Shown: positions 658 through 13,323, numbered from the stretch's first letter. The stretch: 64,000 nt of DNA from Spirochaetia bacterium (GCA_034520965.1 JAXHMY010000001.1:576001-640000); one strand, 5' to 3'. The notes: a model not told the origin generated them from the letters alone. Program-made: numbers and translations.

Positions 658-1041
658 TTATTGATCCGCCCGCCATAAACCGTGGACGTTACAGTACTCA
701 CGCGCAGATACTTTCGATGCCTGAACACAAAACTCAGCAACCGGCTTATCACCAGGCTTGAGAAATTTCCGATAAGATTTTCCGTCTGCTATAAGCTCAA
801 TCCATTCAATGTAGTGTTTCTCTTCCATCGGATGCAGGGTGCTGCCGACAGTTACCTTGAAGCCATCGGATGTCTTTTCGATGAGCGGCACATGCTTTTC
901 AGTAGTCGAATCCGCAGTTTTCTCATCTAGCAGGGTCATATTTTGACCGCAGCATACCAAGTCACCTTCGCCCGTGTGTAATACTTCTACAATATTACCA
1001 CAGATCTCGCACTTGTAAATTCCATTTAATTTAGTTGCCAT
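658..1041 (-). CDS. dfx: Desulfoferrodoxin (2Fe superoxide reductase)
   Basis: YKCEICGN...LVCCG centre [18 protein letters not shown] and CNVHG centre II. Confidence 0.97.
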
Positions 1042-1122: not shown

Positions 1123-1698
1123 TTACCAGTTTTCTCCGAGCAATTCAAAATAGCTCTGAGGATGGGCACATGCCGGACACTGTTGGGGTGGGGCCTGGCC
1201 TTCAAACAGGTAGCCGCAGTTTATGCAGCGCCATGTCACAGATTCATCACGCTTAAAAACCCGACCAGCTTCAATGTTGGCCCTCAAGTCATTATAGCGT
1301 TTCTCGTGCTGTTTTTCCGCAACCATCACCGCTTCAAAAACCGCCGCTACATCCGTAAAACCTTCTTCCCGTGCCTTGGCGGCGAAGGATGGGTACATAT
1401 CGGTCCATTCGTAATTTTCACCTTCCGCGGCCGCCTTCAAATTGTCGGCGGTACTGCCGACTACACCTGCCGGGAAAGCCGCCTGTACTTCGACTTCGCC
1501 CCCCTGCAGGAATTTGAAAAAGCGCTTCGCATGTTCCTTTTCCTGATTTGCGGTTTCCTCAAAAATTTGAGAAATTTGCACTAAACCTTCTTTCTTTGCT
1601 TGGGATGCAAAATAGGTATACCGGTTTCTGGCTTGCGATTCACCAGCAAATGCGGTAAGTAGGTTTTTTTCAGTCTGAGTTCCTTTTAGGTCTTTCAT
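1123..1698 (-). CDS. rbr: Rubrerythrin
   Basis: [16 protein letters not shown] and EKQH di-iron motifs; C-terminal WRCINCG...CPAC; ATG at 1698 after AAAGGAG. Confidence 0.97.
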
Positions 1699-1802
1699 CC
1701 TAACTCCTTTCAATCTTTCGTGATTAGATTCTACCTTACGGGAAGAATCATAATCAACAGGTTAAATAAAATCAAATTTTAATGCGATAAATTTGGCAAG
1801 TT

Positions 1803-2783
1803 TCAGCTTAAGTCGCGATCGTACATTTCGACAATTTGTTTCACTTGGCTTCGAATTTGCCGGCGGTAAGTTAGTGGTTCAAGCACTTCAACTGAGGTGC
1901 CGCACTGTATCAGACGTAAAAAAAGTTCTATTGAGTTTTCGACCTCGACCCGGCAAATAATATCTCCATTCTCATCCGGTTCTTCGGTTTCCAAATTTTT
2001 GTAATACAGATAACGAAACACGTTGAGTACGGACCGCTCGCGCATCCGAAGTTTCAGAGGAATCAAATCATAGCTTGGAGCAGGCCCATCATCACTTACC
2101 CGCCGAAAGGCTTTCAGGTTATCGGGAATAGTATAGGTCTGATCAAGAATCTCAGCTTCCTTTATGTCGGTTATATCAATAGTCTTTACTTCAGCTGTAT
2201 GACGTAGCCGGCCTGTTACACTAATAGGCCGGCGGCCGTTGGACTGTTCACTAAAACCTATAAAGTAGGGAGCAAATTCGGTTTCTTCCTCTAAGCCGCT
2301 CTGCTTATCTACATGCTTTATTCTTACAATTTTGCCGGATACCCATGAATCGGTCAACGTTTCCAGGACCCGAATGTAAGCAGGGTCCTGCTTATGAGCC
2401 CCCAGCTCGATTGATTCTGCAACTGCATTGATGTTTTCGCTCATAGTCGGGGCATAAGTGCGAAGGTTACCGGCGAGCTTGCGAAGCCCTGAGGACATAT
2501 GCGGATTTTGATATTCAGTGTGCTTGGACAGGAGTTCTGCAGACAGGTGAAAGGCCAGGCTCTCGTAGACGCTCAACTTCATCATATTCATTGATTCATC
2601 CTGGGAAACTCCAATTGCATAGTCATCTTCCCAGATATCAATTTTTTTCTTCAATTCATCCACATAGCGCCCGATTGTGGAACGGTGAACCCCCAGACGC
2701 CGGGCAATTTCAGCCCTCCGCATACCTTCGGGATGTGAGAGGAGTAGAAGTTCAAGCTGCATCAGTCGTTCATTTTTCCCCAT
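1803..2783 (-). CDS. HTH-WYL-WCX transcriptional regulator with a degenerate WYL domain
   Basis: N-terminal wHTH (AEIARRLGVHRSTIGRY); WYL-like 'FAPYFI' segment; WCX tail GTSVEVLEPLTYRRQI. Confidence 0.85.
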   Translation of the reverse strand: MGKNERLMQLELLLLSHPEGMRRAEIARRLGVHRSTIGRYVDELKKKIDIWEDDYAIGVSQDESMNMMKLSVYESLAFHLSAELLSKHTEYQNPHMSSGLRKLAGNLRTYAPTMSENINAVAESIELGAHKQDPAYIRVLETLTDSWVSGKIVRIKHVDKQSGLEEETEFAPYFIGFSEQSNGRRPISVTGRLRHTAEVKTIDITDIKEAEILDQTYTIPDNLKAFRRVSDDGPAPSYDLIPLKLRMRERSVLNVFRYLYYKNLETEEPDENGDIICRVEVENSIELFLRLIQCGTSVEVLEPLTYRRQIRSQVKQIVEMYDRDLS

Positions 2784-2793
2784 ACAAACAATT

Positions 2794-2822
2794 ATTGTAT
2801 GAGGAAAATGAAAAAAAGACAA
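2794..2822 (-). promoter_or_regulatory. Sigma70-type promoter of the WYL gene
   Basis: TTGTCT-N17-TACAAT, 10 nt before the ATG at 2783; no SD. Confidence 0.6.
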
Positions 2823-2834
2823 GTGAGCAGCTAT

Positions 2835-2872
2835 CTCATTTTGGATAGTGTAATTAGACTATCCAAAATGAG
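2835..2872. repeat. Perfect 15-bp inverted repeat (operator or hairpin)
   Basis: CTCATTTTGGATAGT-gtaattag-ACTATCCAAAATGAG. Confidence 0.9.
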
Positions 2873-3024
2873 TACGCCTCCAAACGTATGAGATATATAA
2901 AATTTTGCAAAAGAATCTCATGCGGCATCGTAAATTCCGGAAGTCAAAAGACTTCCAAATTTAGAATCGCTGACAAGTGAGGTTATTAGTTATCGGGGCA
3001 GTTCCGTTTGCTGCTCTTCAGGGG

Positions 3025-3480
3025 TTATTTCCAGACTTTCCATTCCAATTCATGGGGTTCCAGTCTAAAAAGCGATCCTTTTCCCTCGTAGAAACCGTGT
3101 TCACCAATCAAATGAATATTGAAATCGGTATAGACAATTTCTCGCCCAAGCCGGGTATTACGAACAGTGGTGTTTGTTTTCGGAATAAGCCCCGCACCGC
3201 CGAAGGGGCTGGGTATGCCGCCCCGTACCGAATCAACCCGAACCTCAAAATTGGGCTCTAGGCCGATAAACTCGCCTAGTCCGTCCTTTCCTCGGTCACG
3301 TAAAGCCGCCATCTTGTCTGCAATTACTCGATGGGTGGTTCCTAAGCGGCGCACTTCCGCCTCGTCTTCTTCTAAAATTTCTACCAAATCTCTTTTATCG
3401 GTTCCAAGAAAACCATGCAGGGTCAATACCCCCGGCTTCATATTCTCCTGAACCTGCTTTAATTGCGGTGATTGTTTCAT
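3025..3480 (-). CDS. Hypothetical soluble protein, last gene of the NQR-like operon (the true stop may be near 2990 after a frameshift)
   Basis: Starts 11 nt after the nqrF-like stop with an AGGAG SD; motifs GFLGxD, RGGIPSPF, IHLIGEHGFYEGKGS. Confidence 0.8.
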   Translation of the reverse strand: MKQSPQLKQVQENMKPGVLTLHGFLGTDKRDLVEILEEDEAEVRRLGTTHRVIADKMAALRDRGKDGLGEFIGLEPNFEVRVDSVRGGIPSPFGGAGLIPKTNTTVRNTRLGREIVYTDFNIHLIGEHGFYEGKGSLFRLEPHELEWKVWK

Positions 3481-3491
3481 AACTGATTCTC

Positions 3492-4595
3492 CTAACCGAA
3501 CTTGTCGAAATAGGTAAGTTCATCGGGAACACCCTTGTCCGAAAGAACCTTTATACAGGCATCTATCATGCCGGGGCTTCCACATAAGTATGCCTCTGTG
3601 TTCTCGCCGGACTCCATATGCCGTGCAACAACATCTGTGATAAGTCCTGTTTCACCTTCCCACTCGTCTTCCTCTTCAGGATCGCTGAGGGCCGGAATAA
3701 ACTCGAAGTTGGGCAGTTCCTTCTCTAAGCGTCGCATCTCCTCTACCAGAAACAGATCCTTTTTGGATCGTGCACCAAAGAAGTACCGAGCCCGCCGGTT
3801 AATTCCCTTTTCCGCCATACTTAACAGAATGGATTTAATCGGCGCCATACCCGAACCGCCGGCGATAAAGATTATCTCCCGCTCGGTTTCACGCAGAAAG
3901 AAATCGCCGTAGGGGCCGTTGAAAATAATATCATCTCCCTCCTTCATGTAGTTATGGACATAGGTGGTGGCGATGCCGTTGGGCACAAGTCGAACCTCCA
4001 GCTCTACATGCTTTGTATCACTGGGGTTAGAGGCCACCGAATAGGCGCGGTACACCGGCTCATCGGTCAGTTCATACTCCGGTACTCTCAGCTGCACGAA
4101 TTGTCCCGGCACCATACTTATTTCGGGAGGGTCGACTACCTCCAGGGTTACCTCTTTGATGTCGTGGGTGAGATCCCTGACCTTTGTCACCTTGGACTGG
4201 AACTCCTTTACGTTGAAGAGCTCCTCCGGAATTTCTAGGGACATATCATTTTTAACTTTAATCTGACAAGAGAGGCGCACATTCTCCGCTTGCTCCTCCT
4301 CAGAGATCCAGGGAAGCTCCGTCGGAAGATACTGGCCGGCCCCCTCCTTGACCGTCACCTTGCACAGACCGCAGGATCCGCGTCCGCCGCAGGCCGAGGG
4401 GATAAAGATCTCCTGCTCCATCAAGGTACCCAAGAGAGGTTTGCCTCCCTTTACGTCATACTCCTTATCGCCATTAATAGTAATCTTTACCTCGCCGTAA
4501 TTGGCGATTGTGGCGTCGGCGATAACCATTAGAATTGCCAAGAAAGCGGAAATACCGGAGACCGCGCCGACACTTATCATTAATGCGGAAATCAT
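3492..4595 (-). CDS. nqrF: NqrF-like NADH-oxidising subunit (TM anchor, 2Fe-2S, FAD/NAD; short monooxygenase-reductase type)
   Basis: SACGGRGSCGLC...RLSC, RAYS, GGSGMAP, YLCGSPGM. Confidence 0.85.
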   Translation of the reverse strand: MISALMISVGAVSGISAFLAILMVIADATIANYGEVKITINGDKEYDVKGGKPLLGTLMEQEIFIPSACGGRGSCGLCKVTVKEGAGQYLPTELPWISEEEQAENVRLSCQIKVKNDMSLEIPEELFNVKEFQSKVTKVRDLTHDIKEVTLEVVDPPEISMVPGQFVQLRVPEYELTDEPVYRAYSVASNPSDTKHVELEVRLVPNGIATTYVHNYMKEGDDIIFNGPYGDFFLRETEREIIFIAGGSGMAPIKSILLSMAEKGINRRARYFFGARSKKDLFLVEEMRRLEKELPNFEFIPALSDPEEEDEWEGETGLITDVVARHMESGENTEAYLCGSPGMIDACIKVLSDKGVPDELTYFDKFG

Positions 4596-4603
4596 GCTAC
4601 CTC

Positions 4604-5197
4604 CTAACCTATCTGCAGCATTCCGGAAAAACCCATGAAGGCCAGGGCCATCATTCCGGTAATTATTAGAGTAATTCCTGCGCCCTCAAGGCCGTGGGGT
4701 ATTCGGGCCCGTTTCAGTTTTTGACGAATGCCGGCCATTGCCAGAATTGCCAGAAACCAGCCTATTCCACTACCGAGTCCGAAGGTAATCGATTCGACAA
4801 AGGTGTAATCGCGGATCACCATAAACAGACTTACACCGAGGATGGCACAGTTGACAGTAATCAACGGCAGAAAAATTCCCAGAGCTGCGTACAGCACCTC
4901 AGACACCCGTTCGATTATCATTTCAACCAGCTGAACGAAGGCTGCGATTACAATGATAAACACAATAAAACGCAGGTACTCTATTCCTAGAGGTTCAAGA
5001 ATTTTATAGTACACTACCCAGTTCAGCATACTGGTGCTGGTCATTACGAAAATAACCGCAACCCCCAGGCCGAAGGATGTTTTCAACTCCCGAGACACCG
5101 ATAAAAAGGAGCACATGCCTAAATAGTTTGACAGGAGTATATTGTTGGTAAAGATAGCCGCAAAGAAAATCGCTATCGGATATGCGCTTTCACTCAT
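4604..5197 (-). CDS. nqrE: NqrE/RnfA-family membrane subunit
   Basis: NILLSNYLGMCSF, GIFLPLITVNCAILG, MALAFMGFSG. Confidence 0.9.
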   Translation of the reverse strand: MSESAYPIAIFFAAIFTNNILLSNYLGMCSFLSVSRELKTSFGLGVAVIFVMTSTSMLNWVVYYKILEPLGIEYLRFIVFIIVIAAFVQLVEMIIERVSEVLYAALGIFLPLITVNCAILGVSLFMVIRDYTFVESITFGLGSGIGWFLAILAMAGIRQKLKRARIPHGLEGAGITLIITGMMALAFMGFSGMLQIG

Positions 5198-5811
5198 TTA
5201 GCCGCCTCCTCTTCTTTTAGAATTGCACCCTTCACAACCCACACAAAAATGGCCAGCATGAAAAATGCCCCAGGAGGCATCACCATAATGGCCCAATTGG
5301 TCCACCAGTCGCCGAGGATGGTTATTCCCCACAGTTCACCGGTACCCATCAGCTCCCGGAAAAAGGCAATAACTATCAGTACATACGCATAACCGATTCC
5401 CGATGAAAGCCCGTCAATTAATGATAGTCCGGCACTGTTGTTCATGGCGAAAGCCTCGGCCCGGCCCATAATAATACAGTTGGTAATGATCAGGCCCACA
5501 TACGGGCCCAGCTGCTGCCATACATCCGGCATATATGCCCTCAGGGTGATGTCTACAATAATCACAAAACTGGCAATGATTAAGGTTTCCGCCATCATCC
5601 TCACCCGCCCTGGAATCAGTTTTCTAAGGGCCGATATTGTTACCCCCGACAGGGTAGTGGTAAAAATTACACCTAAACTCATTATAACCGTGTTTTCAAG
5701 TTTATTAGTTACCGCCAGGGTAGAGCATATTCCCAATACCTGGGCAAACACCGGGTTGTTCTTTCCAAGCGGGTCTGTAAAGGTTTTTTTCATTTTTCCG
5801 CGTGTTGCCAT
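5194..5811 (-). CDS. nqrD: NqrD/RnfE-family membrane subunit
   Basis: NNPVFAQVLGICSTLAVT, VGLIITNCIIMGRAEAFA, PPGAF. Confidence 0.9.
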   Translation of the reverse strand: MATRGKMKKTFTDPLGKNNPVFAQVLGICSTLAVTNKLENTVIMSLGVIFTTTLSGVTISALRKLIPGRVRMMAETLIIASFVIIVDITLRAYMPDVWQQLGPYVGLIITNCIIMGRAEAFAMNNSAGLSLIDGLSSGIGYAYVLIVIAFFRELMGTGELWGITILGDWWTNWAIMVMPPGAFFMLAIFVWVVKGAILKEEEAAK

Positions 5812-5812
5812 T

Positions 5813-6433
5813 TTACTCTCCCCCCTGTTCTACTGTTTCCCGGGCCTCTTCGGCCGCTTTGTTGGCTATTTTAAGAACCGCCTCCGAGGTGCGCGAAGCG
5901 CCGGTTAATGCATCAAGCTCATCTGGTGAGTCCGAAGCGCCCTCAGCCACCAGTTGGAAGGGGCCGCTTTTCCCACGAAATTGCTCCTTATACCACTGTT
6001 CGGTTATGCGCGCACCCAGACCGGGAGTCTCGTTTTGCTCTACAAACTCTACCCCGGTAAAGGTTTCAAGGTCCTGCCGGAAACCGAAAATCGACACAAT
6101 TTCGCCCCACAATCCGGCTCCTCGCACATACACCGCATAACCGGTTTCACCGGAGGGCAGTTCAACTCGAAAATAGTCCGGCTGCCCCTGCTCTCCACCG
6201 ACCTCTTGTACACGATCTTCATAGATTTCCTGAATTTTCGGCGGGTTATCCCGGGGAAAATCTATGCCGGCGGCGTACAACACCGCCCGCTTCTGAAAAA
6301 TCGATTCATTAAGCCGTACTCGCTCTTCTGTGGTAAGAAAAATCCCGGATACCGCACTTATAAACACCACCGTCAGTGCTACCATAAACAGGACCGGGTA
6401 CACCCTGGTTGAAAACATGCTCTCCTGTTTCAT
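5813..6433 (-). CDS. nqrC: NqrC/RnfG-family FMN-binding subunit
   Basis: GAGLWG, ETPGLG and DALTGASRTS (flavinylation motif with Ser). Confidence 0.88.
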   Translation of the reverse strand: MKQESMFSTRVYPVLFMVALTVVFISAVSGIFLTTEERVRLNESIFQKRAVLYAAGIDFPRDNPPKIQEIYEDRVQEVGGEQGQPDYFRVELPSGETGYAVYVRGAGLWGEIVSIFGFRQDLETFTGVEFVEQNETPGLGARITEQWYKEQFRGKSGPFQLVAEGASDSPDELDALTGASRTSEAVLKIANKAAEEARETVEQGGE

Positions 6434-7395
6434 GCCGTGGCCGCCTTCTCTTTTTTCTTCTTTTTCTGTTCCTTGATCAAATGATCAATTAACGGGGCAA
6501 ACATATTTGCAAACAACAGGGCAAAGGTTACCCCTTCCGGCCAGCCGGAATAGACCCTGATAAGCACTGTCATAATTCCAAAGATAGAGCCGTAAATCCA
6601 GCGCCCGAGGTTTGTTGTCTGGGACGCAGACACAGGGTCGGTAACCATAAATACCGCCGCAAACAGAAAACTGCCGCTGAACAGGGCATACACAGGGTTA
6701 ATCGCCCCCTGAATACCACTGTAGAAGAGTGCTCCATAGAGCAACAGAAACGATACGACCGAGGCTGCAATAAAATGCCAGTTGGCACTCTTCTTCCATA
6801 CGATGTAGGCTCCGCCTAAAATGATCAGCAAAGCACTGGTTTCACCAAAGGAACCCACTAAATTGCCCAGAAACAGGTCCCTCAAGGCAAACTCAGCTCC
6901 CTGTGCCTGCTGAACTAGGGGGGTCACACTCGATACTGTATCAATAGAGGGAGTCCAAGCTGCAAAACCCCGCAAAGCGGTTCCTGCAACCGGATCAACA
7001 AAGCGTCCCGTCAGAGGAACGCCAAAACTGATATAGATAAAAGCCCGTCCGGAAATTGCAGGGTTAAACACATTCTTTCCGAAGCCGCCAAAGACCATCT
7101 TACCGAATACCACTCCAAACACAATTCCAACCACTGCGATCCAGAGGGGAATAGTCGGTGGCAGCGAAAGAGCGAACAAAAAATTAGTTACCAGCACCGA
7201 AGAGGTAACTTTCATCGAGTACGTCCGCGCCATAAGGTATTCGGTAAGAATACCAACCGCATTTACCACTGCAAGTACAAGGAGAAACCGCCACCCAAAA
7301 TAATAGATAGCAGCTACTACCAAAGGTGTCAGAGCATACACTACTTTAAGCATGGGCGGTTGCATCTGCATAAACGAATTCTTTTTAGCATTCAT
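6430..7395 (-). CDS. nqrB: NqrB/RnfD-family membrane subunit (short, 321 aa)
   Basis: GKMVFGGFGKNVFNPA, DTVSSVTPL (FMN Thr), GSFGETSA, FMVTDPVS, EGVTFALLFANMFAPLID. Confidence 0.88.
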   Translation of the reverse strand: MNAKKNSFMQMQPPMLKVVYALTPLVVAAIYYFGWRFLLVLAVVNAVGILTEYLMARTYSMKVTSSVLVTNFLFALSLPPTIPLWIAVVGIVFGVVFGKMVFGGFGKNVFNPAISGRAFIYISFGVPLTGRFVDPVAGTALRGFAAWTPSIDTVSSVTPLVQQAQGAEFALRDLFLGNLVGSFGETSALLIILGGAYIVWKKSANWHFIAASVVSFLLLYGALFYSGIQGAINPVYALFSGSFLFAAVFMVTDPVSASQTTNLGRWIYGSIFGIMTVLIRVYSGWPEGVTFALLFANMFAPLIDHLIKEQKKKKKEKAATA

Positions 7396-7402
7396 ACCCG
7401 TA

Positions 7403-7431
7403 ATTATTAAGACTTTAAAACTAGTTGTCAA
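7403..7431 (-). promoter_or_regulatory. Sigma70-type, probably leaderless promoter of the NQR-like operon
   Basis: TTGACA-N17-AATAAT-N7-ATG(7395); no SD. Confidence 0.65.
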
Positions 7432-7677: not shown

Positions 7678-8091
7678 ATGGATGCAAAGCAGTTAGGCCG
7701 GAATATCCGAAAATTCCGTGAAGAAGCAGGCTTGTCTCAGCAATCTCTTGCCGATCAGCTTAACATCTCCTTTCAACAACTTCAAAAGTACGAATATGGA
7801 CAAAGCCGGATTACCGTGGAGCGGATGATAGAGATCTCCCGGATACTGAAAGTGCCGATAGCCCGGCTAGTGCCTAAATTGCCGGAAGACTCTGCACAGG
7901 GCTCCTACAGTGCTGAGAGTGAAAGCTTTGCACCCTTTGAGAGGGTACTTGTAAGTCCTGAGGAGACAGCTCTACTAAAAGTCTTCCGCAGAATTCATAG
8001 CCGGCGGGTGCGCAACATTCTTCTGCAACAGGCAAAAGCATGGGTTGAAGCCGAAAGAGATATGCTGAACAGAACTGAAAATTCTGAATAA
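7678..8091 (+). CDS. XRE-family HTH transcriptional regulator
   Basis: LGRNIRKFREEAGLSQQSLADQLNISFQQLQKYEYGQSRI. Confidence 0.92.
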   Translation: MDAKQLGRNIRKFREEAGLSQQSLADQLNISFQQLQKYEYGQSRITVERMIEISRILKVPIARLVPKLPEDSAQGSYSAESESFAPFERVLVSPEETALLKVFRRIHSRRVRNILLQQAKAWVEAERDMLNRTENSE

Positions 8092-8356: not shown

Positions 8357-9955
8357 ATGAGAAAACTACTTGTTTTCCTGCTCATGGTCTCTCTTGCCGT
8401 TACTGCGTTCGCAGGCGGACAACAGGACGAAGGCCAAACAGCCGAAGCAGCTCAAGAAGAGCCTGCAGAATTTATTCTTGTAAACGGTACGGAGCCCGAA
8501 ACCCTCGACCCGCACCTGATCTCAGGAGTTCCTGAGCATCGCATTTACATGGCAATTTTCGAAGGTCTTACAACCTACGATCCTGAAACAGCCGAACCGG
8601 TTCCCGGATTGGCCAAAAGCTGGGACGTAAGCGAAGATGGAACGGTTTACACCTTCCACCTGCGTGAAACTACCTGGAGCGACGGTGTACCTATCACCGC
8701 ACAGACCGTTGTGGATTCATGGCTGCGCATGCTGGCCCCCGAAACTGCTGCACCCTATGCATGGTTCCCAAATATGTTTATTGCCGGGGCTGCAGAGTAC
8801 AACGCCGGCGATGCCGATGCTGATGCTGTAGGGGTTGAAGCGGTTGACGACTATACCTTCCGCCTCGAACTGGTTGGACCACTTCCCTACGTACTGGGCG
8901 CCCTGCCGCACTACTCGTTTGCAGTTGTTCCCATGCACACAATTGAAGAATACGGCAGCAATTGGACCTCTCCGGAGAACTTTGTCGGAAACGGCCCCTT
9001 TACCCTTGAAGAGTGGAAACCCCAACAGGAGATCTCTGTGGTACCTAACGACACCTACTGGGACGCCGACGTTGTCAGCCTCGACCGGGTAGTCTATCTG
9101 CCGATCGACGACAACAATACCGGGTACAACATGTACCTCAACGGCGAAGCCGACTGGATGACCACTGTTCCTCTAGATCAGATGGATTCCGCCAAACTTC
9201 GTGACGATTATCACAACGCACCCTATCTGGGAACTTACTACTACACCATCCAGAATGAAAAAGATCCCTTCGATGATGCACGAGTGCGGAAAGCATTGGC
9301 AATGTCCTTTGACCGAAAGACTTTGGTTGAAAAAATTACTAAGGGCGGTCAGGTACCGGCAACTTCCATGGTTCCCGATATGGCCGGTTATCCGGGTGTC
9401 GAAGGCAATGGAATGAATGTTGAAAAAGCTAAAGAACTCCTGGCGGAGGCCGGCTACCCGAACGGCGAAGGCTTCCCGGAATTCGAGATTCTCTACAACA
9501 CCAGTGAAGCTCACAAGAAGGTTGCCGAATACATACAGGAACAGTGGGCGGAAAACCTCGGTATCGAATGCGAACTGGTAAACCAGGAATGGTCCACCTG
9601 TCGTCATCAAGCCGACGACAGGGTGACTTCCAGGTTGCACGTGCAGGCTGGATCGGAGACTATCAGGATCCCAATACCTTCCTCGATATGTTCCTCACCG
9701 GCGCTGCCATGAACGGTGGTAATTTTGAAAATGAGCGCTATGACGAGCTGATAAACCAAGCGGCCCGAATGCCCGCCGGCGAAGAGCGGTTCGAAGTACT
9801 GCAGGAAGCCGAGAGCATTTTCATCGACCAGGAACAGGGTGTTATTCCCATTTATCACTACACGCACCAACAACATGATCAACCTCGACGAATGGGGCGG
9901 ATGGTATGTAAACACCATGGACTATCATCCTCCCAAAGACATCTATAAAAAATAA
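8357..9955 (+). CDS. oppA: Oligopeptide ABC transporter substrate-binding protein (frameshifts at about 9600 and 9865, probably sequencing errors)
   Basis: EPETLDPH, FEGL, VPGLAKSW, GNGPF; continues in other frames as ARAGWIGDYQDP and ...MDYHPPKDIYKK*. Confidence 0.92.
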
Positions 9956-9971
9956 TAAAAATCATCCTTAC

Positions 9972-10004
9972 AAGCCGGCAGTTCGCTGCCGGCTTTTCCC
10001 TTTT
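9972..10004 (+). terminator. Intrinsic terminator or attenuator after oppA
   Basis: AAGCCGGCAG-TTCG-CTGCCGGCTT followed by TTCCCTTTT. Confidence 0.85.
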
Positions 10005-10073
10005 CTTTAGAATATTTTTTAGGCGACGGTACCATACGCTTTTACCTGCGCCATGTGGAGTTTGGAGAAAACC

Positions 10074-11004
10074 ATGACGAAATACATTATAAGACGCCTG
10101 ATAGGACTGATTCCCACGCTCTTCATTGTGGTAACTATCAGTTTTTTTCTCATTCGCATCGCCCCAGGAGGGCCTTTTGATGCTGAACGGCGCCCCCCGG
10201 AACAGGTTATGCAGAACATCGAAGCAAAATTTAACCTGAATGCGCCGCTGCACATGCAGTATCTCCGCTACATGGGAGATATAGTACGTGGAGATTTAGG
10301 ACCATCCTTCCGTTATCAAGACCACGATGTAAATTTTTATATTGCCAATAGCTTGCCTAATTCCCTCCTGCTCGGTTTTGTTGCTCTGGGCTTAGCTCTT
10401 ATAGCAGGAGTTAATGCCGGAGTTTTATCCGCCCTCAATCAAAACAGCTGGATTGATTATGTAGCCATGGCAATTGCCATAATCGGTATAACGGTTCCCT
10501 TATTCGTTATTGGACCGGTACTGATGTACTTTTTTGCCTTGCGATGGGATCTTTTGCCGACCTCAGGCTGGATTACCGGCAGATACGGCTGGATCACCAT
10601 CCTTAATGCCCGCCATTACCTTATCTATGCAGCCCTTCGCGACCATAGCCCAGCTTTCCCGCGCCAGTATGCTCGAAATGCTGCGCAGCGATTTTATACG
10701 AACAGCCCAGTCGAAGGGCCTCAGAGATTCGGTTATTATAAGACGGCACGTACTCAAGGGCTCACTGCTGCCGGTAGTCAGTTATGTCGGCCCTGCCTTT
10801 GCCTCTATAGTAACCGGCTCGGTAGTGGTAGAACAGATTTTTCGCGTACCCGGCCTGGGGAGGTTCTTTGTCCAGTCCGCACTGAACCGTGATTACACCT
10901 TGATCATGGGGACGGTAATTGTGTATTCGGTTATATTAGTATTGATGAACTTTATAGTCGATATTATCTACTCGTTCCTCGATCCGCGGATTACATATAA
11001 ATAG
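10074..11004 (+). CDS. oppB: Oligopeptide ABC permease (frameshift at about 10606)
   Basis: YIIRRL, APGGPF, GDLGPS, DFIRTAQSKGL, FLDPRI. Confidence 0.92.
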
Positions 11005-11015
11005 GGAGTTGAACC

Positions 11016-12308
11016 GTGAGCACCAATGAAAACAAGAAAGAGAGCCGTCTACAAGCGGGGCTGCAGTCCACTAATGAGTTCAATCAACCGTTAAAGGGAA
11101 ACAGTCTATATAAAGATGCATGGCGCCGGCTTAAAAGAAACAAAATGGCCATTGCCGGATTGATTGTGGTAGCTCTTTACAGCCTGATTGCACTTTTAGC
11201 ACCGGTTCTTCCGATCTACTCTTACAAAGAGCAGCAAATGAGCCATATCCATCTGCCGCCCTCCTTTTCCGAAACTGCGGGCGAGCAGATGCTGGAACGA
11301 AAGATTATTGAACTCACCACGCTGGCAGCCAAGGATGGACGTGTCGAATGGACCGAAGAGGACCAGAGGCTGATAGACCAGACAATCGAAGAGGCCCGGG
11401 AAAGATACACAGATCCCTCCTCCGCCGGCGGTGAAAAACTTACTCGAAAGGAGAAGGATGCAATTGCCGATGCCGAGCGCTCTGTGCGACGGGCACGGCG
11501 TGACATCGCTGTTGAAGAAGGCCGGGTAAGCCTCAACGAAGAAGAAAAGGCCGAGCTGGAAGCAATGCACCGGCAAATAGCTTCTGAAACAGAGGTAATC
11601 GACGGCGAAGAGGTTAAAGTGCATGAGCGCAGGTACCTCTTTGGAACCGATTATCTGGGACGCGATATGCTGGCCAGAACTATCTGGGGCGGCCAGATGT
11701 CGATTGCCATCGGGCTGATAGGTGGAATAACCTCTGTGCTCCTCGGCCTGTTTTTCGGCGCTATTGCCGGCTATGTGGGCGGTAAAACCGATTATATCAT
11801 TATGCGTATAGTCGACATCATGTACAGCATGCCGTATATGATGCTGGTGATAATTCTAATGGCCCTGTTCGGCCGCAGTATCCTGCTTATGTTCCTAGCC
11901 CTTTCTTTAGTAAGCTGGCTTACGGTCGCCAGGGTGGTACGTGGACAGATCATATCTCTAAAGAACTCAGAGTATGTTGAAGCGGCCCGTTCTATGGGCG
12001 CAAGTTCAACCAGAATTATTTTCCGGCACTTGGTCCCGAATACTTTTGGAATCATTATTGTATATACTACCCTAAGGATTCCCGTATTTATTCAGATGGA
12101 AGCGTTTCTCTCCTTTCTAGGGCTCGGTATTTCAGCCCCTTATGCATCCTGGGGTTCTCTAATCGGAGATGCGGTAGAGGGGATGCGGGCCTACCCCTGG
12201 CGCTTGTTCTTTCCAGCCATTGCTATGACAATCTTCCTGTTCGCCATGAACTTTCTAGGCGACGGACTGCGGGATGCATTCGATCCGCAGAGTAAAAATA
12301 AACTGTAA
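11016..12308 (+). CDS. oppC: Oligopeptide ABC permease with a long extracytoplasmic insertion
   Basis: AWRRLKRNKMA, FGTDYLGRD, EYVEAARSMGA, NFLGDGLRDAFDP. Confidence 0.95.
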   Translation: MSTNENKKESRLQAGLQSTNEFNQPLKGNSLYKDAWRRLKRNKMAIAGLIVVALYSLIALLAPVLPIYSYKEQQMSHIHLPPSFSETAGEQMLERKIIELTTLAAKDGRVEWTEEDQRLIDQTIEEARERYTDPSSAGGEKLTRKEKDAIADAERSVRRARRDIAVEEGRVSLNEEEKAELEAMHRQIASETEVIDGEEVKVHERRYLFGTDYLGRDMLARTIWGGQMSIAIGLIGGITSVLLGLFFGAIAGYVGGKTDYIIMRIVDIMYSMPYMMLVIILMALFGRSILLMFLALSLVSWLTVARVVRGQIISLKNSEYVEAARSMGASSTRIIFRHLVPNTFGIIIVYTTLRIPVFIQMEAFLSFLGLGISAPYASWGSLIGDAVEGMRAYPWRLFFPAIAMTIFLFAMNFLGDGLRDAFDPQSKNKL

Positions 12309-12330
12309 GTTTCAAGAGAGGAACGACTAC

Positions 12331-13323
12331 ATGAGTGAAGAAAAGCTACTACAAGTCGAAGACTTGAAGACATACTTTAAAACCGACGAAGGGACAGTAA
12401 AAGCGGTCGACGGAGTCTCCTTCTCCTTAGGACGCAAGGAATCGCTGGGAATCGTAGGAGAATCCGGTTCCGGTAAATCGGTGACTAACCAGTCATTGCT
12501 GCGCTTAATCCCGTCACCTCCCGGCAAAATAGTGGGGGGAAGTGTAAAACTGGAAGGGGTAGATATCCTAAAACTGCCTAAATCGAAATTAAGGAATATC
12601 CGTGGGAACAAGATCTCTATGATCTTTCAAGACCCAATGACCAGCCTTAACCCCTTTTTAAAGATTTCCACCCAGATGATCGAAACAATTATGCTTCACC
12701 AGCATGAAGATAAAAAAACCGCACGGGAGCATTCAATTGAAATGCTGCGGATGGTGGGCCTCCCTAAGCCGGAGAGGCGCATCGACAACTATCCGCACCA
12801 GTTCTCCGGTGGTATGCGACAGCGCGTAATGATCGCAATGGCCCTCAGCTGCAAACCCCAAGTGCTTATCGCCGACGAGCCGACTACCGCGTTGGACGTG
12901 ACTATCCAAGCCCAAATTCTGGAAATTATGCAGGACTTGTCCGATCGTCTCGGCACCGCCCTAATAATGATTACCCACGACCTGGGAGTGGTGGCCGGAC
13001 TGTGCGACCGAATTGCGGTTATGTACGCCGGTCGAATTGTAGAAGATGCGGACACCGAATCGCTGTTTGAAGAGCCGAAGCACCCCTATACCCAGGGACT
13101 AATAAGCTCTGTACCCCGTCTGGACAAAAAAACCGGCAAAAAGCTGTCGTCTATTCCTGGACAGCCACCAAACCTTATCGACCTGCCGGATTGCTGCCCC
13201 TTTTACCCCCGCTGTCCACACGTCATGGATATTTGTAAAATAAGTATCCTGTCGAGGTGAAGCGAGGTAAAAACCGAAGCCGGCTCATCCACCCGCAGAG
13301 TCAGTTGCTGGCTCTATTCATGA
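12331..13323 (+). CDS. oppD: Oligopeptide ABC ATPase (frameshift near the 3' end at about 13245)
   Basis: [39 protein letters not shown]; tail VSCWLYS* in another frame. Confidence 0.93.

Follow-up and report, generated by a model that had tools for sequence, protein, structure and literature searches.

The window analysed here is a 64 000-nucleotide stretch of the genome of a Spirochaetia bacterium (GCA_034520965.1, JAXHMY010000001.1:576001-640000). It carries an operon whose first five genes encode relatives of subunits B to F of Na+-NQR, an NADH:quinone oxidoreductase that translocates Na+, followed by a sixth gene, here called U. A reading of the sequence alone (the original prediction) had described an 'NQR/RNF hybrid', an ion-pumping complex with an NADH input, no NqrA, RnfC or RnfB, and an acceptor that might not be a quinone. 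All six open reading frames are encoded by the minus strand and follow the order claimed, B-C-D-E-F-U, with overlaps of 4 nt or gaps of 1–11 nt between them (table 1).

Table 1. Features of the operon and its surroundings, with positions counted from the first nucleotide of the window.
Feature	Position	Strand	Remarks
nqrB-type gene B	6430..7395	-	321 aa from ATG at 7395; PF03116
nqrC/rnfG-type gene C	5813..6433	-	206 aa; PF04205
nqrD gene D	5194..5811	-	205 aa; PF02508
nqrE-type gene E	4604..5197	-	197 aa; PF02508
nqrF gene F	3492..4595	-	367 aa; Fer2+FAD_binding_6+NAD_binding_1
U, sixth gene	2990..3480	-	~162 aa natural form; here frame ends at 3025 (151 aa)
sigma70-type promoter TTGACA-N17-AATAAT	7403..7431	-	11/12 match; 7 nt 5' of B ATG
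rubredoxin, 53 aa	472..633	-	sole rubredoxin found in genome; proposed electron acceptor
desulfoferrodoxin (superoxide reductase)	658..1041	-	proposed downstream sink
rubrerythrin (peroxide reductase)	1123..1713	-	proposed downstream sink
HTH-WCX (WYL-type) regulator	1803..2822	-	at this site in close relatives only
interspersed repeat, ~154 bp	2818..2971	undefined	between U and WYL gene; outside the system
divergent XRE-family gene	7678..8091	+	5' boundary marker; kept in close relatives only

F comprises an N-terminal membrane helix, a 2Fe-2S site (C69, C75, C78 and C110), an FAD domain (motif RAYS) and an NAD domain, and lacks two insertions of canonical NqrF. It had been taken for a short monooxygenase-type reductase; this assignment has to be dropped, since F exceeds the TIGR01941 cut-off (314 versus 295 bits) and its best PDB match is NqrF at 243 bits, against at most 129 bits for monooxygenase-type reductases, so that F is a true NqrF. 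Among the NCBIfam models, D also passes an NQR cut-off (NF006777, 238 versus 235 bits), B is the sole chain to pass that of rnfD (242 versus 207 bits) and falls below those of the nqrB models, while neither C nor E reaches any cut-off. The best PDB match of B is NqrB (185 bits), and its RnfD-like length of 321 residues is as described originally.

The cofactor sites are intact, as had also been proposed: C has the motif DALTGAS with the FMN-site TGAS at 177–180, D and E have cysteines at the intramembrane 2Fe-2S ligand positions (Cys29 and Cys112, and Cys29 and Cys117, respectively), and B keeps the FMN threonine (Thr158), the riboflavin ligands (T70, G106, N108, N111, A113, F249 and D253), the gate F245/F249 and the acidic residues E52, E185 and D304. 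The same holds across the family, as the FMN threonine and the ligands of riboflavin are conserved in 70 full-length B sequences (partial ones were dropped), together with the F338/F342 gate of NqrB and its E144, E274 and D397. The roles of these NqrB residues, E144 and D397 excepted, are those given in the corresponding passages of PMC10643135. Of the acidic and gate residues considered for Na+ translocation, all but D52 and E157 are kept. Up to riboflavin, the complex thus likely works in the manner of Na+-NQR.

The original prediction placed a promoter directly ahead of B and held that nothing is missing at the 5' end. The promoter match is present, although its significance is not supported by scanning alone, with five such matches found in the region against 7.9 expected by chance; the support comes instead from conservation, a TTG(A/C)C box standing 33–39 nt ahead of the B start codon in 18 of 34 relatives that were hand-picked from 65 with a defined start. 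The conserved spacing of this −35 box suggests that the operon begins at B, with a transcript that is likely leaderless; the divergent XRE-family gene upstream marks the 5' boundary. Related contigs from a metatranscriptome match B to F at approximately 90% identity, which indicates neither expression level nor co-transcription.

Position in the Rnf/Nqr family and loss of the quinone pocket

A joint tree of B, D and E (IQ-TREE, 698 columns) resolved three fully supported groups among its 51 rows, namely NqrA-less operons (32, chosen for spread), canonical NQR (9, a thin sample with none from Bacteroidota, Chlorobi or Chlamydiae) and Rnf (10). Support for the NqrA-less clade was 100/99 and for its sister relation to canonical NQR 100/100, and single-gene FastTree trees of B, D and E gave the same three groups. 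The subunits are therefore not nested within canonical NQR, and the 'hybrid' label is unsupported, because B, D and E each join the NQR side as a sister clade. The operon represents a third lineage among the Rnf/Nqr pumps, sister to Na+-NQR, and its predicted product is neither a Na+-NQR nor an Rnf by the terminal modules that define them.

The features lost are the quinone pocket and the anchoring arm. B starts approximately 90 residues later than NqrB, without its N-terminal quinone helices; the amphipathic helices at the N-terminus of NqrB form the quinone pocket, according to section 16 of PMC12174285. Three pocket residues differ in this B (G141 to I49, E157 to S65 and F159 to V67), and across the family a larger residue replaces G141 in at least 69 of 70 sequences, while F159 is replaced in all 70. 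A histidine-containing N-terminal arm, found in 9/9 NqrB and 11/11 RnfD, is seen in 0/70 NqrA-less B, which have a near-invariant glutamine instead. In RnfD, the N-terminal SPH arm is buried in RnfC, and the relevant passage of PMC9588780 likens this to the fixation of NqrB to NqrA. Given the loss of the arm, B is apparently built to carry neither NqrA nor RnfC.

The host genome (3.35 Mb, nine contigs, 86% complete) has its closest named relatives among Spirochaetaceae/Sediminispirochaeta-like metagenome-assembled genomes (F 85–96% identical). No nqrA was found over cut-off in it (RnfC alone scored, at 21 bits), in the operon, in 80 related loci or in any of 45 genomes carrying the operon or U, which bears out the claim that NqrA is absent. 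The claim of no RnfC or RnfB holds for the operon, and rnfB, rnfC and nqrA were likewise not found in the fetched flanks of the 80 loci, but it does not hold for the genome, where a complete rnfCDGEAB operon stands separately on contig 3. Across the 45 genomes, rnfC was over cut-off in 43 and rubredoxin was present in 45. This part of the original prediction, an ion-pump-type complex with an NADH input, no quinone site and no NqrA, is supported.

Compared with Na+-NQR (NqrABCDEF of Vibrio cholerae; PDB 7XK3 and 8A1T), the operon thus shares the B-C-D-E-F order, the NqrF input and the FMN, riboflavin, 2Fe-2S and gate residues, but it lacks NqrA, the quinone helices, G141, F159, D52, the histidine arm and the two NqrF insertions, and it has gained U. 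With Rnf (Clostridium tetanomorphum, 7ZC6; Acetobacterium woodii, 9ERI) it shares the membrane core and the length of B; it differs in lacking RnfB, RnfC and the RnfC-binding arm, in forming a separate clade, and in occurring beside a complete Rnf in the same genome. The five-gene form has been in print since 2014: Pseudothermotoga thermarum and P. lettingae (PMC4148951; 2014) and Clostridium ultunense (PMC5924567; 2018) were reported to carry nqrBCDEF but no nqrA, the acceptor being called unknown in both papers, and Ca. Izimaplasma ZiA1 is listed with this set as well (PMC6256511). The passages concerned name no sixth gene, clade, lost arm or rubredoxin link; a Pseudothermotoga locus (L052) groups within the NqrA-less clade. 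A full-text literature search, with subscription papers mostly outside its reach, turned up nothing that named a sixth subunit, any connection to rubredoxin or biochemical work. The 'NQR/RNF-like' flavinylation clusters of bioRxiv 10.1101/2021.01.07.425746 are similar in their NqrB- and NqrF-like parts and NAD(P)H donor, but as described in the part of that work concerned they fuse NqrB and NqrF domains for one-way export, whereas here there are five separate subunits.

We assessed the spread of the operon from the best 80 of 220 confirmed F relatives. U lies directly 3' of F in 55 of these loci, 24 have no U and one is cut off. The U-less loci come from Bacillota (23) and Sumerlaeota (1), and record titles of the carriers, with Ilyobacter included, cover seven phyla of anaerobes. 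Among 151 evenly sampled Spirochaetota genomes U was present in 23, directly after nqrF in 22 of them; in the remaining genome (G033) there is no nqr gene within the 8-kb contig bearing U. With this query, the F type was found in 2/201 genomes of a Bacillota sample. These patterns point to a real and widespread variant of the Rnf/Nqr family.

Several further observations were made on these relatives. Canonical nqrF was present in 7 of the 151 Spirochaetota genomes (L149-L156), with nqrA-F in the seven fetched loci and U in none of them. In 15 U-less F sequences of Tissierellales type (L062-L081), LSR, an NADPH signature, replaces the LSD of this F near residue 305; this is possibly an NADPH-using subtype. 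An msrA gene stands close to 13 of 21 U-less loci, and a RelA/SpoT-domain gene directly follows F in 16 loci. Four genomes (G053:C4:128977-160329, G084:C26, G091:C9 and G153:C1) each encode two extra proteins of 474–519 aa that match both RnfC and NqrA weakly, on a contig shared with a UbiA-family gene in three of the four, and these could perhaps be another Rnf/Nqr variant.

The sixth gene and its rubredoxin neighbours

U had been described as a protein of 151 aa, a length that we attribute to a frameshift: relatives have about 162 aa, contigs from three other sequencing runs lack 2 nt near position 3043, and the missing tail is present in another frame with a natural stop at 2990–2992. The runs were compared as assembled contigs, leaving out those with small shares, and the best one (X1) has no listed piece across the site. 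The 2-nt insertion is either an assembly error or a strain mutation. Relative to loci L003/L005, oppA, oppB, oppD and metH (window 8357-13260 and 1-300) also appear split by frameshifts; the assembly seems to carry indel errors. The interspersed repeat 3' of U is of MITE or REP type in appearance, with an internal 15-bp inverted repeat; it has 30 matches of at least 120 nt in the genome (about 71–100% identity) and is absent from this site in relatives (a related contig and loci L003/L005).

U was modelled as a soluble α/β protein with high confidence (pLDDT 93.6) and no membrane segment. It gave no Pfam match in a family scan and none in a profile search of PDB sequences, while searches of solved structures yielded a best E value of 0.3 with Foldseek and a best Z-score of 2.5 with VIA-align; lack of a PDB match does not prove a new fold. 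A weak lead is DUF7919 (PF25535), which is carried by 13% of the members of one Atlas cluster and matched by one distant U relative at 23.6 bits, below the cut-off of 27. The U family has 1799 representatives at E ≤ 0.001 and 97 at 1e-30, and near-invariant positions are confined to His123, His128 and Lys101. A role for U as a metal-bearing redox protein is not favoured, because Cys91 is serine in this lineage (and in 37/73 sequences overall).

U is connected with rubredoxin in three ways. The first is by fusion. We scanned 23 long or distant proteins among the 150 best relatives of U, and two of them end in a rubredoxin, one intact and one out of frame; others carry a ferritin-like domain (one), a nitroreductase (one) or unrelated, perhaps chimeric, parts (three). 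The intact fusion lies in locus L175, where at the DNA level the flavodiiron gene fprA leads the operon, followed by B and C, two inserted genes, and then D, E, F and the U-rubredoxin gene; in another organism a fusion 59% identical to it directly follows nqrF (L174/L176). A model of the fusion protein was confident (pLDDT 93.7, pTM 0.80) and gave no docking geometry. The two short genes between nqrC and nqrD (L175:3561-4581) resemble a nucleotidyltransferase/HEPN pair. A search for longer forms of U gave only one unrelated 651-aa protein. In a further set of proteins (P0122, P0138, P0197, P0227, P0268 and P0121) the U domain occurs as tandem repeats of two to four stretches in long proteins and at the end of one 651-aa protein, so that its range as a mobile domain extends past this operon.

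The second connection is by neighbourhood. In the present genome the sole rubredoxin lies 2.4 kb downstream of U, behind the WYL-type regulator, rubrerythrin and superoxide reductase (SOR) genes. A rubredoxin gene lies no more than 10 kb from U in 11 of 23 genomes, whereas the same distance from rnfC holds one in 0 of 22 of these genomes; in another family an erythrin-SOR-rubrerythrin set stands directly ahead of B in three loci, with two further loci cut off. Of the 80 loci, 62 have at least 3.5 kb of downstream sequence; among these, 27/41 with U carry a gene for rubredoxin, rubrerythrin, SOR or FprA, versus 0/21 without U. A different kind of neighbour, 6-phosphogluconate dehydrogenase and 6-phosphogluconolactonase (with glucose-6-phosphate dehydrogenase in two loci), directly precedes the operon in L028, L030, L033, L045 and L046, loci of the family that has rubredoxin after U, a possible supply of reductant from the oxidative pentose phosphate route.

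The third is by phylogenetic profile. PF18267, a marker of soluble NADH:rubredoxin oxidoreductase (NROR), was not found in the present genome (86% complete), and it occurs in 2/23 genomes with U versus 37/83 other rubredoxin-bearing genomes (nominal p = 0.0013, which is overstated because related genomes are not independent) and, among further genomes, in 2/11 versus 6/11. On gene order and fusion, U is a candidate rubredoxin adaptor. The earlier idea of a non-quinone acceptor is borne out as far as the missing quinone site is concerned, but the acceptor is not wholly open, as context, fusion and profile data point to rubredoxin.

The electron acceptor

We consider it about an even bet (probability approx. 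0.5) that the complex is a Na+-pumping NADH:rubredoxin oxidoreductase from which rubrerythrin, SOR and flavodiiron proteins receive electrons, U serving as the adaptor. Judged from the conserved cofactor residues, electrons would pass from NADH to the FAD and 2Fe-2S centre of F, the 2Fe-2S centre of D/E, the FMN of C and then the FMN and riboflavin of B, with ion transport along the way. Gene context suggests that the uncapped cytoplasmic face of B, which is where RnfC takes up electrons in Rnf, would then hand single electrons to rubredoxin, and that rubredoxin would reduce rubrerythrin, SOR and flavodiiron protein. Rubredoxin carries single electrons at a potential of about −60 to +40 mV, and the span from NADH to rubredoxin would therefore suffice. 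For comparison, the part of PMC4014512 concerned places NADH at −320 mV and menaquinone, by which NQR is driven, at −80 mV, and states that pumping does not occur at the step of quinone reduction. That rubredoxin feeds rubrerythrin, SOR and flavodiiron proteins is described in a passage of PMC13333549. Overall reaction and downstream enzymes would be the same as for soluble NROR, which is one soluble flavoprotein and does not pump ions; the complex would replace it, so that energy would be conserved as O2 and peroxide are removed. The genome has two FprA-like genes at other sites, and one ATPase K subunit with the Na+-binding motif of Enterococcus NtpK.

A number of observations weigh against this proposal. 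Its support is guilt by association, and the related loci are not independent: nine of the 11 genomes with an adjacent rubredoxin belong to one family, in which it lies a few hundred bases 3' of U. Six loci of other spirochaete families, and Ilyobacter, have no such redox neighbour. The five genes stand without U in 24 of the 80 loci, and among the 21 of these with enough flank no rubredoxin is close by, so the acceptor may differ between subgroups, the U-less Bacillota forms using another. Rubredoxin is common in any case (83/128 U-negative genomes), PF18267 is found in nitrite reductases as well and fails to pick up other rubredoxin reductases, and there are 23 Pyr_redox_2 matches in this genome. 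U itself has no invariant cysteine, and its distant relatives occur in unrelated proteins.

Some of these points fit a pump that is intact but serves another cytoplasmic acceptor, such as free flavin, flavodoxin, a diiron protein or O2, with U structural or regulatory. The U-less loci, the U-bearing lineages without a redox neighbour and the fusions of U to a ferritin-like domain and a nitroreductase are all compatible with it; the recurrence of rubredoxin as a fusion partner, as a neighbour in three families and in the NROR pattern is not so readily accommodated, and we regard this alternative as unlikely, if deserving of attention. A second possibility is a short circuit in which F and U reduce rubredoxin directly, as a membrane-anchored flavoprotein, with the membrane arm serving another route and no pumping. 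U does directly follow F in most loci, and rubredoxin is promiscuous, being reduced directly by a hydrogenase according to PMC13333549. Such a short circuit would leave the conserved FMN and riboflavin path in B without an exit, however, and in the loci examined U was not seen to travel with F alone, making it quite unlikely.

We give little credence to an exit at the outer face, by which the FMN of C or B would serve extracytoplasmic acceptors such as Fe(III), flavins or enzymes that repair the envelope. C belongs to the ApbE-type FMN proteins, an ApbE gene was found in the genome, the U-less loci often have msrA nearby, and one of the carriers is indicated to be a metal reducer in the passage of PMC5924567 concerned; yet the riboflavin ligands on the cytoplasmic side are nearly invariant, U has no membrane segment and no recurrent gene for an outer acceptor lies beside the U-bearing operons. 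An ordinary NADH:quinone pump with a remodelled site for a scavenged or unusual quinone deserves very little. In its favour, and likewise counting against rubredoxin, G140 is kept in 66/70 and E157 in 29/70 B sequences, and a UbiA-family prenyltransferase gene is present in 26 of the 45 genomes, several at 180–200 bits. Against it stand the loss of both N-terminal pocket helices (PMC12174285, section 16), the near-universal replacement of G141 and F159, and the 19 of 45 genomes, this one (86% complete) included, in which no UbiA-family gene was found. For the futalosine pathway, one borderline PF02621 match (25.8 bits) was not taken as evidence. Finally, borrowing of the RnfC of the genome to form an ion-coupled transhydrogenase is hardly credible, despite the frequency of rnfC among carriers and the Ser-Arg (presumed NADP) signature of the 15 U-less F where this F has Ser-Asp, since the RnfC-binding arm is missing in 70/70 B and, with the NADH-type motif of this F, transfer from NADH to NAD+ would yield no energy.

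The rubredoxin proposal can be extended to the whole third branch of the Rnf/Nqr family, as a Na+-pumping NADH:rubredoxin oxidoreductase that uses no quinone and has in U an adaptor of new fold. The rubredoxin, rubrerythrin, SOR and flavodiiron proteins with which strict anaerobes defend themselves would thereby become a short chain of respiration that ends in O2 and peroxide, and the sister relation to Na+-NQR would show that the recruitment of NqrF preceded the quinone site or did not depend on it. This wider version is more tentative, and we hold it at somewhat less than even odds. Two outputs are ascribed to Rnf and Nqr, NAD+ through RnfC and the quinone pocket. If the proposal is correct, rubredoxin would be a third, allowing fermentative anaerobes without quinones or oxidases to gain ion-motive force while removing oxygen, and the question of the acceptor of nqrBCDEF, open in print since 2014, would be answered. 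The uncapped complex would offer a minimal system in which to find the step that pumps ions, and its position as sister to Na+-NQR would bear on how that enzyme originated from Rnf.

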